This document shows positions 1 through 4,246 of a stretch of DNA of 32,000 nucleotides, one piece after another. The stretch comes from Zestosphaera tikiterensis (GTDB lineage: Archaea > Thermoproteota > Thermoprotei_A > Sulfolobales > NBVN01). Within the stretch, counting starts at the first letter, position 1; each line of letters starts with the position of its first letter. The stretch is taken from assembly GCA_003056265.1 (NCBI GenBank), contig NBVN01000002.1:30001-62000 (forward strand). The letters run 5' to 3'. The translations under genes were made by a program, and so were the position numbers. The notes under the pieces were generated by a model. It was given only the letters and a program-made list of their open reading frames with translations, was not told the origin of the DNA and did not search any database.

Positions 1-781
1 TGTTTGGAGGCAATGCTATTACAATCAACAGCAGTAATGGTACAGCAACAAGAGATAATGTTAACGCTTCACTCAATTCATCAATAACAGGTTTAATTAA
101 ACATTTCATTTGTATAAACTTTTCGAGAACTGTAACAAGCCTAATATTGACTGCTGCATTTCTCAATTTCTTTGGTGTTTCCTTAAACGAAACACTCATC
201 AAATTAGTAGATCTAACCCTACGATCGAAAAGATATATCGTTACAGAGCTAAGAAACAGTGCTATAAGTCCACAGAGACTTTTCATGAATATGTCAGCAC
301 TGTTTTCATAGATTAAAAGTAAGAAAGATTGAGACTGAACGAAGAATATCCATCTGTATAATCCTCCCAGTGCTTCTATGCTAATACCTCGGAAACTATT
401 TGGTTTAGTTAATTTAGTTAAATATACTAACACTACTGGAAAAATGTAAAGTAGTGACAGCATTGCTTGAGGTAATAGAGAGTGTTGTGTTGTATTGAGA
501 ATAAAGACGAAAATAAATAGAATAGTTAAATCGAAAAGAAAGATGAAAGCTATCAAGAAATTTGTGAGAAACGTTAATTTAGGCAGAAGTCCAAACAGGA
601 ATACTATAAGGGAAACGATATTAAGCATTATGGCAATCATTAATGAGAAGTTGTCAGACGCGAACAACTGATAAAGCTGCAGTATTGCTCCAAGGAGTAT
701 TGCTGAAACCACACCAATAATAATGGATGTTAGTTTTAATATGTTTTCTGGAGCCCGTCTAAACCTCTTTACGTTGCTCAT
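1..781 (-). CDS. Multi-pass membrane protein of unknown function. The C-terminal end runs off the window (at least 260 codons). It is absent from the supplied ORF track.
   Basis: Hand translation of the minus strand from ATG at 781-779 gives MSNVKRFRRAPENILKLTSIIIGVVSAILLGAILQLYQLFASDNFSLMIAIMLNIVSLIVFLFGLL... It stays open with no stop to position 1 and has several long hydrophobic segments. GGAGGT (plus 789-794) sits 7 nt upstream of the ATG, with an AT-rich TATA-like stretch further upstream. Confidence 0.55.
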   Translation of the reverse strand, partial: MSNVKRFRRAPENILKLTSIIIGVVSAILLGAILQLYQLFASDNFSLMIAIMLNIVSLIVFLFGLLPKLTFLTNFLIAFIFLFDLTILFIFVFILNTTQHSLLPQAMLSLLYIFPVVLVYLTKLTKPNSFRGISIEALGGLYRWIFFVQSQSFLLLIYENSADIFMKSLCGLIALFLSSVTIYLFDRRVRSTNLMSVSFKETPKKLRNAAVNIRLVTVLEKFIQMKCLIKPVIDELSEALTLSLVAVPLLLLIVIALPPN

Positions 782-1538
782 CGCAGAAACCTCCGCAACG
801 AGTTTATTTATTAAAGATCCTAAATAAGTAATAACATCAACTAGGTAATAAGCATTTTACTTAATCGAATATATGTTGAACATACTTTTGACTGAGCATG
901 CAATTGGCTTTTAAAGCTGTTGAAAATTAATGCCAAGCATATATAGTTCTATAGATGAATTCGTAGCAAGTACAGGTCACAAGGATTACCGAAGTCTACG
1001 GTTCCCATTAACTTCAGACCTGTAGAAGAAGCGAGCCAATCGACCTCCAGAACAGGTTAAGGTTTCATAAAGACTTCGTTAAACATAGCTTCACATCTGA
1101 AGAGGTAGTCACTATTCAATGAAAGGTTGCCTCTTGCGAAACGTAGCAATTTATAGGCTACCTCAGCTGAAGAGATTTCAGAGCAGATGTTTTCTAATCT
1201 CTTGAGGTAACAATAGAGTAAGTCTGCCGACGAGAAAAAATATAAAGCGTTTCGACGGCGACATAACATGACTGAAGTAGCTTTCAAGCAACTTGATGAG
1301 GGGACTTTCCAGCCTAGAGAGCTGCTGTGGATAACCTGCGTGCGGGCCAAATTCCAGCGAATCCGTCATAGAATTGAATTCCCTTAATTGAATTTTCTGG
1401 TAGGTTTTCTAAATCTTCTAATTAAGTTTTAGGTGTTTGAAAGGCCTGCTCAGATCCTTCTTACCTCTGCTTAGATATTGGTTTTTAACATTAATAGTGA
1501 CGATCTTATAGAGGCATCCAACAAATAGCTCTCAGGAC

Positions 1539-1955
1539 TCATATACAAAATTCTCTTTTCCTCAAAAGTGTATAGAGATCTATACTCTTGGAGCATCTAA
1601 CTACCTCGACCTTAGACCTCATAGCAAGACTTTTAAGTAGGCTGTCAACACCACCTTTATGATGTAATAAAAGCATTTTTATGGCATTAGCGGGTTGCAG
1701 AAAATTTTTCTCTATAAGTCTATCATATGACTCTTCAAGTTTTCGGATATCCCTAAGCTCAGGCGTGCCCGTATCCTCAATAACTATATTGAGTACGTAT
1801 TCGCCACATTTTAAAACTAGAGCTACATCACTTTTCTTTTCATTTTTCTTTAAGGTCTGGTTTAAAACTTCATCTAAATTCGTCTGTTTTAATAATTCAG
1901 CGTTAGGCGGTAGGGTTATAGTTGTGTTTTTAATCTTTATCTTCTTCACAGTCAC
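1539..1955 (-). CDS. 138-aa protein of unknown function, translationally coupled to the upstream ATPase
   Basis: The ORF has a GTG start at 1955 and overlaps the ATPase stop (1930) by 26 nt. GGAGGT lies 7 nt upstream of the GTG, inside the ATPase 3' end. I recognise no catalytic or family motif in MTVKKIKIKNTTITLPP...NIVIEDTGTPELRD...LLLHHKGGVDSLL... Confidence 0.6.
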   Translation of the reverse strand: MTVKKIKIKNTTITLPPNAELLKQTNLDEVLNQTLKKNEKKSDVALVLKCGEYVLNIVIEDTGTPELRDIRKLEESYDRLIEKNFLQPANAIKMLLLHHKGGVDSLLKSLAMRSKVEVVRCSKSIDLYTLLRKREFCI

Positions 1956-3504
1956 GTATCCTACCTCCAGCTCTAAGTTTCTGGACTCTGTAGTAGAGTT
2001 TCATATGTTCTTCATAAAGTTCCTCAATGATTTTCTTAAACACGTCATCCCGAATACCCGTCTCACTTACCTTGACTTCTTCTACAATTGAGTAACCTTC
2101 ATCTTTCCTGAAGTTGTAGATCTTTACATCCTCAGGCTTTAATGCGACTCTAAATTCTGGCGCATTTGAAGATCCAGCCATAACCAAATTGCTAAGTTTG
2201 TTGAGTATCACATCGCTATGAGTTGTAATTATGACTCTTACGCCCAATCTCTTAGCTAAAAGCGTCAAGACTTCAATTAGCTTCGCCTGTTTATCCGGAT
2301 GTAGATGCGCCTCAGGCTCTTCGATAATCAAAATATCATTCTTTTTAATCGAACCATATTTAAGGTATAAATCAAGAGGACTAAGCTCAGCAATCATTGA
2401 AGACACATTAGAAAGTGGAAACTCGAATTCTTTAGACCTGTATATAGGCTCGGGAAGAGATATATCACCTCTTCTAACAAGCTCTACACTTCCTTCCAGT
2501 ATTTCCTCTAATGACTCGATGATCTCCTTTAACTCATCACTTATATTAATTGCCCTTGGATCCAACGATATAAGCTCCGCTAGAAAATCCGCTAAAGTCC
2601 CAGGAACGCTAGGAATCTCAGCACCGCGAATAGGCATACTAGGTACTGATTTTATTATTGCGGATGCTACAGTTCTATAGCTATATAAAATCCCTGCTCG
2701 CGAGGCTGGAAGATAATGAATGTCAAATTTAGCGAAATCTATTTCTAAATCTTCTAATAAATCTTCTAATATTTCTAATAAATATGGTAAATATGGTAAA
2801 AACTCTTCTGAAGTAACTCTCCTTGAAGTGATGACTCTAAAAAGACGGTAGTAACGTTCCTTTACGCCCTTTTCAAGGCTCCCCAGTATGGCATCTGTTT
2901 TTGCGGTAAGCTTAATGTCGAGATTTGCGTTCCTATCCTGCTTTATCCTAGGTTTTGGCATCGAGACTTTTAAGTCACAGCTTAATTCAAAGAATTTACC
3001 CTTAAGTTTAATGTTTGCTCTCATTTCGCTCGATCCCCGCCTTACAAGATCGGTAATTCTAGATGAGAATACCCTCTCGATCTCCTCTATTACGAGTTTT
3101 TTAAAGTTTTTAGAATTCAATAGCTTATTTAACTCATTTATGTAAAGCTCCATACCTCTCTCCACAAATTCCCCTAGAAGTTTGTTCAATTCTTCATTTT
3201 TGCGGTGGCTTTTAGGTTCTTTAGCTAGGCTCTGAGCTTTTTCTCGATATTCATTCACTAGCTTTTCTAACAAGTTTCCTAAGTCTTTCATTTCTATGAA
3301 TCTAAGGAATCCTTCCCTTATAATTTTCTGTATACTTTCTATCATACTTTCTATCGAAGCATACAAAAACATAGCTGTATAGGACTTCCCAGTATTGTTG
3401 GGTCCTATGAATAAGGTGATCGGTGCTAGTTCTATTTCTCCTTTCCCAACATATCCAAAGTTCTCGACATTAAGCCTAATGATATCTATCACCGTGCCCA
3501 CCAA
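1930..3504 (-). CDS. ABC/SMC-type (AAA_15/AAA_21-like, OLD/GajA/AriA/PtuA-class) ATPase, 524 aa
   Basis: The N-terminal beta-strand plus Walker A reads LFIGPNNTGKSYTAMFLY. A long helical insertion of about 300 aa, rich in E, K and L, follows. Walker B/D-loop is NDILIIEEPEAHLHPDKQ and the H-loop is VIITTHSDVI. A TATA-like TTATAATA (plus 3541-3548) lies about 37 nt upstream of the TTG/GTG start. Confidence 0.8.
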   Translation of the reverse strand: MVGTVIDIIRLNVENFGYVGKGEIELAPITLFIGPNNTGKSYTAMFLYASIESMIESIQKIIREGFLRFIEMKDLGNLLEKLVNEYREKAQSLAKEPKSHRKNEELNKLLGEFVERGMELYINELNKLLNSKNFKKLVIEEIERVFSSRITDLVRRGSSEMRANIKLKGKFFELSCDLKVSMPKPRIKQDRNANLDIKLTAKTDAILGSLEKGVKERYYRLFRVITSRRVTSEEFLPYLPYLLEILEDLLEDLEIDFAKFDIHYLPASRAGILYSYRTVASAIIKSVPSMPIRGAEIPSVPGTLADFLAELISLDPRAINISDELKEIIESLEEILEGSVELVRRGDISLPEPIYRSKEFEFPLSNVSSMIAELSPLDLYLKYGSIKKNDILIIEEPEAHLHPDKQAKLIEVLTLLAKRLGVRVIITTHSDVILNKLSNLVMAGSSNAPEFRVALKPEDVKIYNFRKDEGYSIVEEVKVSETGIRDDVFKKIIEELYEEHMKLYYRVQKLRAGGRIRDCEEDKD

Positions 3505-4246
3505 ACACGTCTCTAAATCTATCCCTAAGAGACATATGAATATTATAACTAATAAAGTATTGAATGATTGCTCGCTTAGCGATAACTGGGATATTCACAA
3601 ACTTTGGATAAGCAATGTAATAGAATACGAGAATAGTTTCCCTCCAGAATCTAGTTCTGCTGATGTAAGTTACTGTCGCTAAATTGTTGAATGTTACCAT
3701 GTGTGAATCATTGGGTGAACTGTGATTTTGGTTTCAACCCCTTTAAAGCTGTCTAGCGTATCTGAATGCTACCATAGCTAGATGTTACAGTCAACTCTTA
3801 GAACTTTACATCAGTAATTTAGCTCACCATAGTTGAAGATCTTAATAAAGTTGCGATAAATTAGAAACGTGTCTACAAAATATTGTGGGCTCGTTACGCA
3901 GATCAGGGCCACGATAACCTGCTCTAGAAAATTTTCTCCAAGTATATACTCAAGTTGTTGTTGAGGTCCTTAAAGTGTGTAGTCAGTGAAATCTATTTGA
4001 ATACTTAAAGTGCGTTACTGGTGTTGTCGAAAAAGTGTTTGCGAGGGAGAGGTTATAGAGGTTTTAAGAGAGGTCGAGAGGCTTATAGGGAGGTTAAAGC
4101 TCAGATCGGGCATCGACACGCATATACGTGGTCTTGCTAAAGGGCTTGTTTGAGGTCTTTCCGATAAGATAGCGGGATAAAATATTAGGTGTTAATCTTA
4201 AATTCTATGGGAGACTTAGAAGCGCTAGTGTTGGATATGTTAGCAA

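Follow-up and report, generated by a model that had tools for sequence, protein, structure and literature searches.

Zestosphaera tikiterensis is a hyperthermophilic crenarchaeon, a hot-spring archaeon, and a 32,000-nucleotide (nt) stretch of its DNA (hereafter the window) carries on the minus strand a gene for an ATP-binding cassette (ABC) ATPase, followed by an overlapping gene for a protein of 138 amino acids (aa). We conclude that this locus is probably a two-gene conflict module directed against viruses or mobile elements, and that it represents an archaeal branch of the class in which an OLD-type ABC ATPase is combined with a small effector of restriction endonuclease (REase) fold. We place the pair as a divergent branch within the PD-T4-4/WonAB-type class and not as a new combination; an unusually small partner beside the ATPase is already the established architecture there. 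The novelty lies in a narrow archaeal family of partners with an E-x-T motif, which is missed by PADLOC and Pfam. PADLOC misses the pair because the effector is too divergent. The initial annotation of the locus had proposed an undescribed combination of ATPase and effector and had considered the partner much smaller than the effectors of such systems. Neither point was supported: the pair belongs to the PD-T4-4/WonAB class through the family of its partner, and a size of about 16 kDa is normal in the class, WonB being 16.1 kDa (PMC12137116).

Small partners of related ATPases

Relatives of the ATPase were taken from reference genomes of diverse bacteria and archaea (79 loci), and together with earlier loci these made 86. 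In about 70 of the 86 ATPase loci, an open reading frame (ORF) of 130-210 aa abuts or overlaps the stop codon of the ATPase gene, and the gap between ATPase and partner is -68 to +56 nt in most of the 86. Clustering of the partners gave, apart from singletons, one large family (49 members), two smaller ones with 10 and 3 members, and the archaeal family. The large family, whose members are 130-190 aa long and are found in bacteria and archaea, was aligned and analysed for 48 of its 49 members. It has the motif 'krCD ... E-l-K', with Asp in 46/48 and Glu in 48/48 sequences, and two positions after this Glu 38/48 have Lys, 4/48 have Thr and the remaining 6/48 have some other residue.

The archaeal family that contains the 138-aa protein (alignment A2; 29 sequences, 37% mean column identity) was compared with the 48-member partner family by hhalign. 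The two families were aligned with a probability of 95.2% and an E value of 2.5e-8 over 106 columns, which is nearly the whole protein. D43 of the archaeal family was placed on the aspartate of 'CD', E60 on the invariant Glu of E-l-K, and Thr62 or a gap at the Lys. Both families also have [HY]-G at the end of beta4 (LHH.G in the archaeal proteins) and R-C-G after beta5. The segment IVIEDTG of the 138-aa protein, which had been listed as a mere weak feature, corresponds in this alignment to the beta3 catalytic strand of the predicted REase fold. Judged from these profiles, homology links the 138-aa protein with the small partners of related ATPases, whose Asp and Glu it keeps. The large partner family has four well-conserved Cys residues (two N-terminal, the Cys of 'CD' and that of 'RCG'), a possible Zn site, of which only the last Cys, C121, is retained in the archaeal family.

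The large family is connected to named defence systems. PADLOC models for PDC-M47B (1.6e-5) and PD-T4-4_B (5.8e-5), and also PDC-M29B and HEC-02B, match its members, and weak matches to HSDR_N and VRR_NUC were found in Pfam. When the large family was aligned by hhalign with PD-T4-4_B from E. coli, the probability was 76% (E 2.4e-5), and the catalytic core 'kscD-lvIv ... LDLKSk ... Q' was covered. The reference PD-T4-4 pair is from a 4.8-kb Col plasmid of E. coli, and PADLOC scores its A protein at 3e-123 over the full length and its B protein at 1e-43. This plasmid (pSCU-105-5, NZ_CP051743.1, locus L093; 4802 bp) is a small Col(MG828)-type plasmid that carries PD-T4-4 at 1352-3350 as essentially its sole cargo, and an identical 4802-bp plasmid is present in a second E. 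coli strain (H2).

The ATPase resembles PD-T4-4_A and PtuA

Pfam assigned the ATPase to AAA_15 (8.6e-25) and AAA_21 (5.8e-13). The best of its 139 PADLOC matches (5027 models) was PD-T4-4_A (PDLC04033, E 2.9e-38; PDLC04032, 6.8e-36), followed by NsnB, AriA, PDC-M47A, HEC-02A, GajA and Old, and this ranking, with PD-T4-4_A at the top, was the same for the Ignisphaera orthologue and for bacterial relatives of the ATPase. The match to PD-T4-4_A is partial, covering residues 306-508 of the ATPase and positions 247-459 of the 460 in the model, and it includes the C-terminal extension of the ATPase up to model position 459/460. BLASTP against PD-T4-4_A of E. coli aligned residues 373-500 with residues 326-456 (E 6e-18), covering Walker B, the H-loop and the whole C-terminal extension; the alignment is confined to the terminal regions and leaves out the inserts of the ATPase. 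Matches to the GajA, Old, AriA and PtuA models are weaker and lie mostly in the Walker B region.

The AlphaFold2 (AF2) model of the ATPase had a mean predicted local distance difference test score (pLDDT) of 80.7 and a predicted template modelling score (pTM) of 0.83. A comparison by sequence only gave no close solved structure for the ATPase. Foldseek with the model gave PtuA of the Septu and retron I-A complexes as the closest solved structure (E 1.7e-12), and then Rad50 and SMC heads. Thus Pfam, PADLOC and Foldseek agree with the initial annotation in that this is an AAA_15/AAA_21 ABC ATPase of OLD/Septu type. In the model, N-terminal beta-strands and the P-loop are followed by a helical Insert 1, a beta/helical region, the LPASRAG loop, Walker B, the H-loop and the C-terminal extension. 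Long helices (40-153), strands (160-201) and helices (203-257) precede the LPASRAG loop (265-271), and a second insert precedes the signature region at about residue 368. A helical insertion of about 300 aa had been described before; in the model there are two inserts in its place. The LPASRAG loop may be the equivalent of the Q-loop, by analogy with R182 of WonA (PMC12137116), and the C-terminal extension is predicted from the models of WonA and WonB to be the docking surface for the small protein (PMC12137116). The protein is an ABC ATPase in which the nucleotide-binding motifs are complete and are conserved in an alignment of 18 ATPase sequences (A4, Table 1); it has two inserts, and its C-terminal extension is homologous to the one in PD-T4-4_A.

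The small protein belongs to a narrow family with a predicted nuclease fold

A word-indexed search with the 138-aa protein found 7 close relatives, including Igag_0778 of Ignisphaera aggregans, and a word-prefiltered search with profile A2 found 11 proteins. The better census is a profile search run exhaustively over 1.84 billion representative proteins (E <= 1e-3), which gave 36 matches, about 33 of them proteins or fragments of similar size. Since only 36 matches were found among so many proteins, the family is narrow, and its known members come only from Thermoprotei genomes and from metagenomes of hot springs. In the 29-sequence alignment, E60, H98 and C121 are invariant and P16, D43, T62, P65 and D69 are nearly so.

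With this alignment as input, AF2 gave a model of the small protein with a pLDDT of 92.6 and a pTM of 0.86. The order of its elements (alpha 27-31, beta 44-50, beta 53-62, alpha 67-82, beta 91-99) is compatible with an alpha-beta-beta-beta-alpha-beta core, the best structural match having only E 3.9e-3 and a template modelling (TM) score of 0.41. Foldseek matches, with weak scores, were mostly nucleases of REase fold, namely Cdn1, NucS/EndoMS, Card1, Can2, Mus81, BstEII, BspD6I, AF1548, XisH, VC1899, MspJI and BamHI, and the named viral matches were 'restriction endonuclease', 'PD-(D/E)XK', ERCC4 and Rpb5-C. Toprim, DUF4435 and HNH were found in neither protein by Pfam, PADLOC and NCBIfam, and the small protein had no Pfam match to RloB, DUF4276 or DUF3226. 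It had been reported that the small protein lacks Toprim, HNH and PD-(D/E)xK signatures. This was right for Toprim and HNH but not for PD-(D/E)xK, as D43 and E60 align with D...E-x-K, although the Lys is a Thr. Sub-threshold matches of the 138-aa protein to a Tc-R-P phosphatase (E 0.026) and to a glycosyltransferase DXD (E 0.13) were dismissed as noise.

A Lys-to-Thr variant of the active site

The D ... (D/E)-x-K triad is incomplete in the archaeal family: Asp43 and Glu60 are present, and Thr62 is at the position of the Lys in 28/29 sequences. In the AF2 model, D43 is at the start of beta2, E60 and T62 are at the end of beta3, D69 is at the start of the next helix, and H98 and H99 are at the end of beta4. 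By strand topology, D43, E60, T62, D69, H98 and H99 would thus lie on one edge of the sheet. The two His residues correspond to the [HY]-G of the large partner family, in which H is found in 17/48 and Y in 12/48. Because D43, E60, D69 and H98 are strictly conserved, a remodelled, functional active site is suggested rather than a dead one. In such a site the carboxylates might bind metal, and a His or another residue might take over the role of the Lys.

In a neighbour-joining tree of the ATPases, those with E-x-T partners form one clade, which is nested in the radiation of ATPases whose partners belong to the E-x-K family; bacterial 'IELT' variants form a second clade and E-x-L/M variants a third. 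The E-x-T, IELT and E-x-L/M partners each sort with ATPase clades, which indicates that the partner type tracks the phylogeny of the ATPase, and the separation of the Lys-less variants in the tree indicates that the Lys was lost independently at least three times. Partners without the Lys are IELT at L023, L046, L048 and L054, E-x-L/M at L066, L074, L085 and L087, and E-I-S at L040. It is conceivable, though we would not expect it, that the E-x-T/HH family is a mechanistically distinct effector, for example a His-assisted or Lys-independent ribonuclease, in a hyperthermophilic abortive-infection system controlled by an ABC ATPase, and the first archaeal example of the class. If this were true, the catalytic chemistry of PD-(D/E)xK proteins would be more plastic than the paradigm and the WonB K71A result suggest.

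The two genes form an accessory operon

The ORFs, Walker A, Walker B/D-loop, H-loop, the 26-nt overlap and the GGAGGT at 7 nt were all re-read from the sequence as the initial annotation had given them. From the first TTG (3504), the ATPase ORF extends over 1930..3504 of the minus strand and encodes 524 aa. The deposited copy of the ATPase (P0008) has 520 aa, and GTG at 3492 is therefore the likely start, giving MIDIIRLNVENF. A hypothetical protein deposited for Z. tikiterensis has exactly the sequence of the 138-aa protein (100% identity), whose conserved homologues extend to identities as low as about 25%, and the ATPase has more than 460 homologues. Both ORFs are therefore real genes and not chance ORFs, and they form a real two-gene operon that is translationally coupled. 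A 74-aa ORF (3476..3700) and small ORFs at 1057..1369, considered as a third component, have no family match; no third gene recurs in related loci, and they were treated as non-genes.

The coupling of the pair, claimed before from the window, held in other genomes. The small gene is directly downstream of an AAA_15/AAA_21 ATPase gene in 7/7 readable contexts, namely the window, L001 (Ignisphaera aggregans), L003, L004, L006, L090/L091 and L092. The neighbours of the module are HepT/MNT, SocA-Panacea, Mrr/NERD and ATPase_2 in L001; a second ATPase pair, DprA/SLOG and UPF0175/DUF3368 in L003; HepT and PaREP1/HEPN in L004; MazE/PIN in L006; and a type I restriction-modification (R-M) system, MNT, PIN and GIY-YIG in L092. 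The position of the module differs in every genome examined and is never syntenic; a syntenic core locus, which had been named beforehand as evidence against a defence role, was not seen. The left end of the window is AT-richer, as had been stated, with a GC content of 0.34-0.39 over 1-4000 and of 0.40-0.47 elsewhere. In summary, the pair behaves as an accessory, defence-like module, and the earlier proposal to this effect is supported by its lack of synteny, its lower GC content and the presence of toxin-antitoxin (TA) or R-M neighbours in most relatives. The small number of representative clusters and the occurrence of a frameshifted partner in one relative agree with an accessory character.

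Some of these loci carry further ATPase pairs. In L005 (6330-6790), the small partner gene downstream of a 42%-identical ATPase (P0019) is frameshifted exactly at IIEDTG, which is a pseudogene or an assembly error. An intact second pair, consisting of a 436-aa ATPase and a 133-aa E-x-K-type protein, is located 2 kb away on the other strand (L005:8357-10061, minus). In L003 (1417-3142), a different AAA_15/AAA_21 ATPase gene (392 aa) overlaps that of a 200-aa protein without Pfam or PADLOC match, 5 kb upstream of the E-x-T pair, and the two may form a further, uncharacterised module of ATPase and partner. In two large bacterial chromosomes (L008:7041-8981 and L009:7126-8412), a 428-aa AAA_21 ATPase adjoins an E-x-K-type pair, so that two ABC-ATPase modules are side by side; the one in L008 has a weak DUF4276 partner (E 2.7e-4).

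Weighing of the assignment and its alternatives

Several points weigh against an antiviral module of the PD-T4-4/WonAB class. The 138-aa protein has nothing significant in Pfam, PADLOC (no match at E <= 1) and NCBIfam, and the scores of its Foldseek matches are weak (best E 3.9e-3, TM 0.41 or lower). A direct hhalign comparison of A2 with the single PD-T4-4_B of E. coli was not significant (probability 0.9%, E 0.06), and membership of the class therefore rests on the transitive link via the large partner family. A confident match to the effector of a named system, which had been set down beforehand as evidence against novelty, was thus reached through an intermediate family but not directly, and for this reason some novelty remains, as a divergent variant. 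The Zestosphaera module, a short stretch of lower GC content, lies among housekeeping genes and has no recognisable defence neighbours, and the enrichment of TA and R-M genes in the neighbourhoods was judged by eye, without statistical control. Nuclease activity is not assured, since the protein lacks the catalytic Lys and the K71A form of WonB is inactive (PMC12137116). The experimentally tested members of the class are bacterial (PD-T4-4, WonAB and, more loosely, HEC-02), and the ATPase-effector complex, the trigger and the substrate of the archaeal pair are inferred by analogy.

The small protein might instead be a catalytically dead adaptor or regulator of REase fold, with the ATPase or an unlinked host factor as the real effector and with the module acting by signalling or sequestration. 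The REase fold often serves as a binding module without catalytic activity, and Rpb5-C is among the viral Foldseek matches of the small protein. The Thr at the catalytic Lys in 28/29 sequences also fits a dead protein, given that K71A in WonB abolishes both defence and toxicity (PMC12137116). However, a dead site would normally drift, whereas D43, E60, T62, D69 and H98 are invariant or nearly so despite a mean column identity of 37%. PD-(D/E)xK enzymes with a substituted Lys are active, as in BamHI (E-x-E) and BglII (E-x-Q), and the Lys-less variants have persisted after independent origins in no fewer than three ATPase clades, suggesting that the site tolerates or compensates the change. We consider a dead adaptor unlikely.

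Overlapping two-gene architecture and frequent TA genes nearby are also what would be expected of an addiction module, in which the ATPase neutralises a small toxin of nuclease fold and the pair stabilises a genomic islet without sensing viruses. Pfam labels AAA_21 'putative AbiEii toxin, type IV TA', the frameshifted partner in L005 is compatible with an inactivated toxic gene, and the 4.8-kb Col plasmid has no cargo other than genuine PD-T4-4. For WonAB, however, a TA model of sequestration was excluded experimentally (PMC12137116), and such a module is improbable here, although TA and abortive-infection roles are not mutually exclusive. A housekeeping role in DNA repair or recombination, with an SMC/Rad50-like ATPase and an Hjc/NucS-like nuclease, would agree with the resemblance of the ATPase fold to Rad50 and SMC heads, with NucS/EndoMS and Mus81 in the Foldseek list of the small protein, and with the housekeeping genes that flank the module in the window. 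The likeness to repair nucleases is at the level of fold only (TM 0.41 or lower), and the closest relatives by sequence are components of defence systems, not repair proteins. Moreover, the family is sparse (36 representative clusters), its location differs in every genome examined and its GC content is lower than that of its surroundings, and we regard a housekeeping role as very improbable.

Features of the locus and its surroundings

The coordinates of the features are given in Table 1. The TATA-like stretch upstream of the ATPase gene is tentatively a possible archaeal promoter, judged by inspection of the sequence. A scan of the window for sigma-70 promoters and terminators gave results no better than shuffled sequences, and this model is not applicable to archaea. 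No tRNA genes or Rfam elements were found in the window, and a search around the module for insertion scars, att sites and flanking repeats gave only short repeats at chance level.

On the left, the module is flanked by a gene for a 423-aa membrane protein, DUF1122 and reverse gyrase, the latter two beyond the window, and on the right by an ABC transporter, deoxyhypusine synthase and HisRS. The 423-aa protein is a multi-pass membrane protein without Pfam match, encoded downstream of the module on the minus strand at window positions 1-780, where it runs off the left edge (L089:1845-3116). Between it and the module there are about 750 bp of AT-rich DNA without a convincing ORF. On the other side, about 740 bp (3505-4246) between the start of the ATPase gene and a divergent ABC-transporter gene have no ORF of at least 75 aa and no Rfam match. 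This gap, which contains the TATA-like stretch 3537-3556, is unusually long for this compact genome.

Table 1. Positions in the window of the two genes, their conserved motifs and their putative control elements
Feature	Position	Strand	Basis and remarks
ABC-type (OLD/Septu-like, AAA_15/AAA_21) putative sensor ATPase	1930..3492	minus	520 aa from GTG 3492; ORF, Pfam, PADLOC, AF2
Walker A / P-loop GPNNTGKS, residues 34-41	3382..3405	minus	Sequence; G34, N36, N37, G39 and K40 invariant in A4
LPASRAG loop, residues 265-271, between Insert 1 and Insert 2	2692..2712	minus	Y264, P266, A267, R269 and G271 invariant in A4
Walker B / D-loop ILIIEEPEAHLHP, residues 391-403	2296..2334	minus	Sequence; E395 to P403 invariant in A4
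H-loop ITTHS, residues 426-430	2215..2229	minus	Sequence; T427, T428, H429 and S430 invariant in A4
ATPase C-terminal extension, residues 431-524 (helix 431-446, beta-hairpin 460-477, helix 486-511)	1933..2214	minus	AF2; homologous to the C-terminus of PD-T4-4_A
Small partner, 138 aa, GTG start	1539..1955	minus	ORF; putative divergent REase-fold effector (PD-(D/E)xK-derived)
Asp43, N-terminal end of beta2, equivalent of the 'PD' aspartate	1827..1829	minus	Conserved in 28/29; aligns with the Asp of 'CD'
Glu60-Asp61-Thr62, E-x-T variant of the (D/E)-x-K strand	1770..1778	minus	E in 29/29, T in 28/29; Thr or gap at the Lys position
His98-His99, C-terminal end of beta4 (LHH.G)	1659..1664	minus	H98 in 29/29, H99 in 86%
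Overlap of the ATPase 3' end and the small gene 5' end, 26 nt	1930..1955	minus	Sequence reading
GGAGGT, Shine-Dalgarno-like, 7 nt 5' of the GTG of the small gene	1963..1968	minus	Sequence reading; putative function
A/T-rich TATA-like stretch CTTTATTAGTTATAATATTC, 45-64 nt 5' of the ATPase GTG	3537..3556	minus	Sequence inspection

Proposed mechanism and significance

If the pair works like WonAB, PARIS and Septu, the ATPase would dimerise around ATP and hold the small effector inactive on its C-terminal extension. A viral cue might be sensed via the variable inserts of the ATPase and lead to ATP-dependent activation or release of the effector, which would then cleave nucleic acid, and the infection would be aborted. 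RNA (tRNA or rRNA) is a plausible target of the effector, since the action of WonB halts translation but leaves DNA undegraded.

Apart from CRISPR, R-M and a few TA systems, little of the antiviral immunity of archaea has been charted. With the present pair, the class would be extended to hyperthermophilic Crenarchaeota. The proteins are naturally thermostable and suited to structural work on the control of a nuclease by an ATPase C-terminal extension, and a natural Lys-to-Thr variant with a conserved His is a test case for the chemistry and the substrate of these effectors. In addition, profile A2 and that of the large partner family could enter the libraries of defence finders. The advance is incremental and not a new principle.

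Comparison with known systems

The pair has the traits of the class formed by an OLD-type ABC ATPase and a small REase-fold effector: invariant motifs, a PtuA/Rad50/SMC-like fold, a C-terminal extension and a 138-aa partner directly downstream. WonAB, PD-T4-4 and HEC-02 of this class protect against phages, each of them needing both of its genes (PMC12137116; PMC9519451; bioRxiv 10.1101/2024.01.29.577857; 10.1101/2025.07.10.664194). PD-T4-4 was found by functional selection in E. coli (Vassallo et al. 2022, PMC9519451) and is listed as a PD-(D/E)xK nuclease-NTPase system (bioRxiv 10.1101/2025.07.10.664194). In PD-T4-4, the genes are adjacent and co-oriented in the order A then B, and the archaeal genes likewise have the ATPase first, with an overlap of 26 nt. 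The archaeal ATPase matches the profile of PD-T4-4_A and has Walker B, the H-loop and the C-terminal extension in common with it, and the partners are members of one remote superfamily, the core of which is [CS]D...[ED]-x-[KT]. In contrast, PD-T4-4_B has about 200 aa and D-L-K, whereas the archaeal partner has 138 aa with E-D-T and HH and matches no PD-T4-4_B model; the inserts of the ATPases are unrelated, and the host is an archaeon and not a bacterium.

WonAB is encoded by the WASA-1 prophage of V. cholerae (Adams et al. 2025, PMC12137116). The system works only with both genes present, and defence and toxicity are lost when WonB carries K71A (PMC12137116). Activation of WonAB halts translation, while the chromosome is not degraded, and an RNA target is suspected (PMC12137116). 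WonB is a 16.1-kDa variant PD-(D/E)xK protein that is predicted to dock on the C-terminal extension of WonA, and its toxicity needs active WonA, by which a simple sequestration TA model was excluded (PMC12137116). An 'OLD-ABC ATPase + novel REase' operon was described by Krishnan et al. 2020, as cited in PMC12137116, and homologues of WonAB and of this related operon are described for bacterial genomes only. Compared with WonAB by its published description, the archaeal pair likewise consists of an OLD-type ABC ATPase followed by a REase-type protein of about 16 kDa, in an accessory, mobile module. The difference is that WonB needs its Lys, while the archaeal family has Thr there.

HEC-02 consists of an ABC ATPase and a NERD protein, both genes of which are needed, and it has been validated (bioRxiv 10.1101/2024.01.29.577857). 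PDC-M47, a PADLOC candidate, and HEC-02 are like the archaeal pair in combining an ABC ATPase with a PD-(D/E)xK/NERD-type partner. PDC-M47A and HEC-02A are among the top matches of the archaeal ATPase, and the PDC-M47B and HEC-02B models match members of the intermediate partner family. The 138-aa protein, however, matches neither B model, and HEC-02B is larger, with a NERD domain and a (D/E/Q)xK motif. Septu PtuAB (also the retron I-A effector), PARIS AriAB, Gabija GajA and class 1/2 OLD have an ATPase of the same ABC superfamily, and in these systems too the ATPase senses and the nuclease acts. Their sequence similarity to the archaeal ATPase is confined to the nucleotide-binding motifs, and their effectors, unlike the 138-aa partner, are HNH (PtuB) or Toprim/DUF4435 proteins (AriB, GajA, OLD), which are fused or larger.

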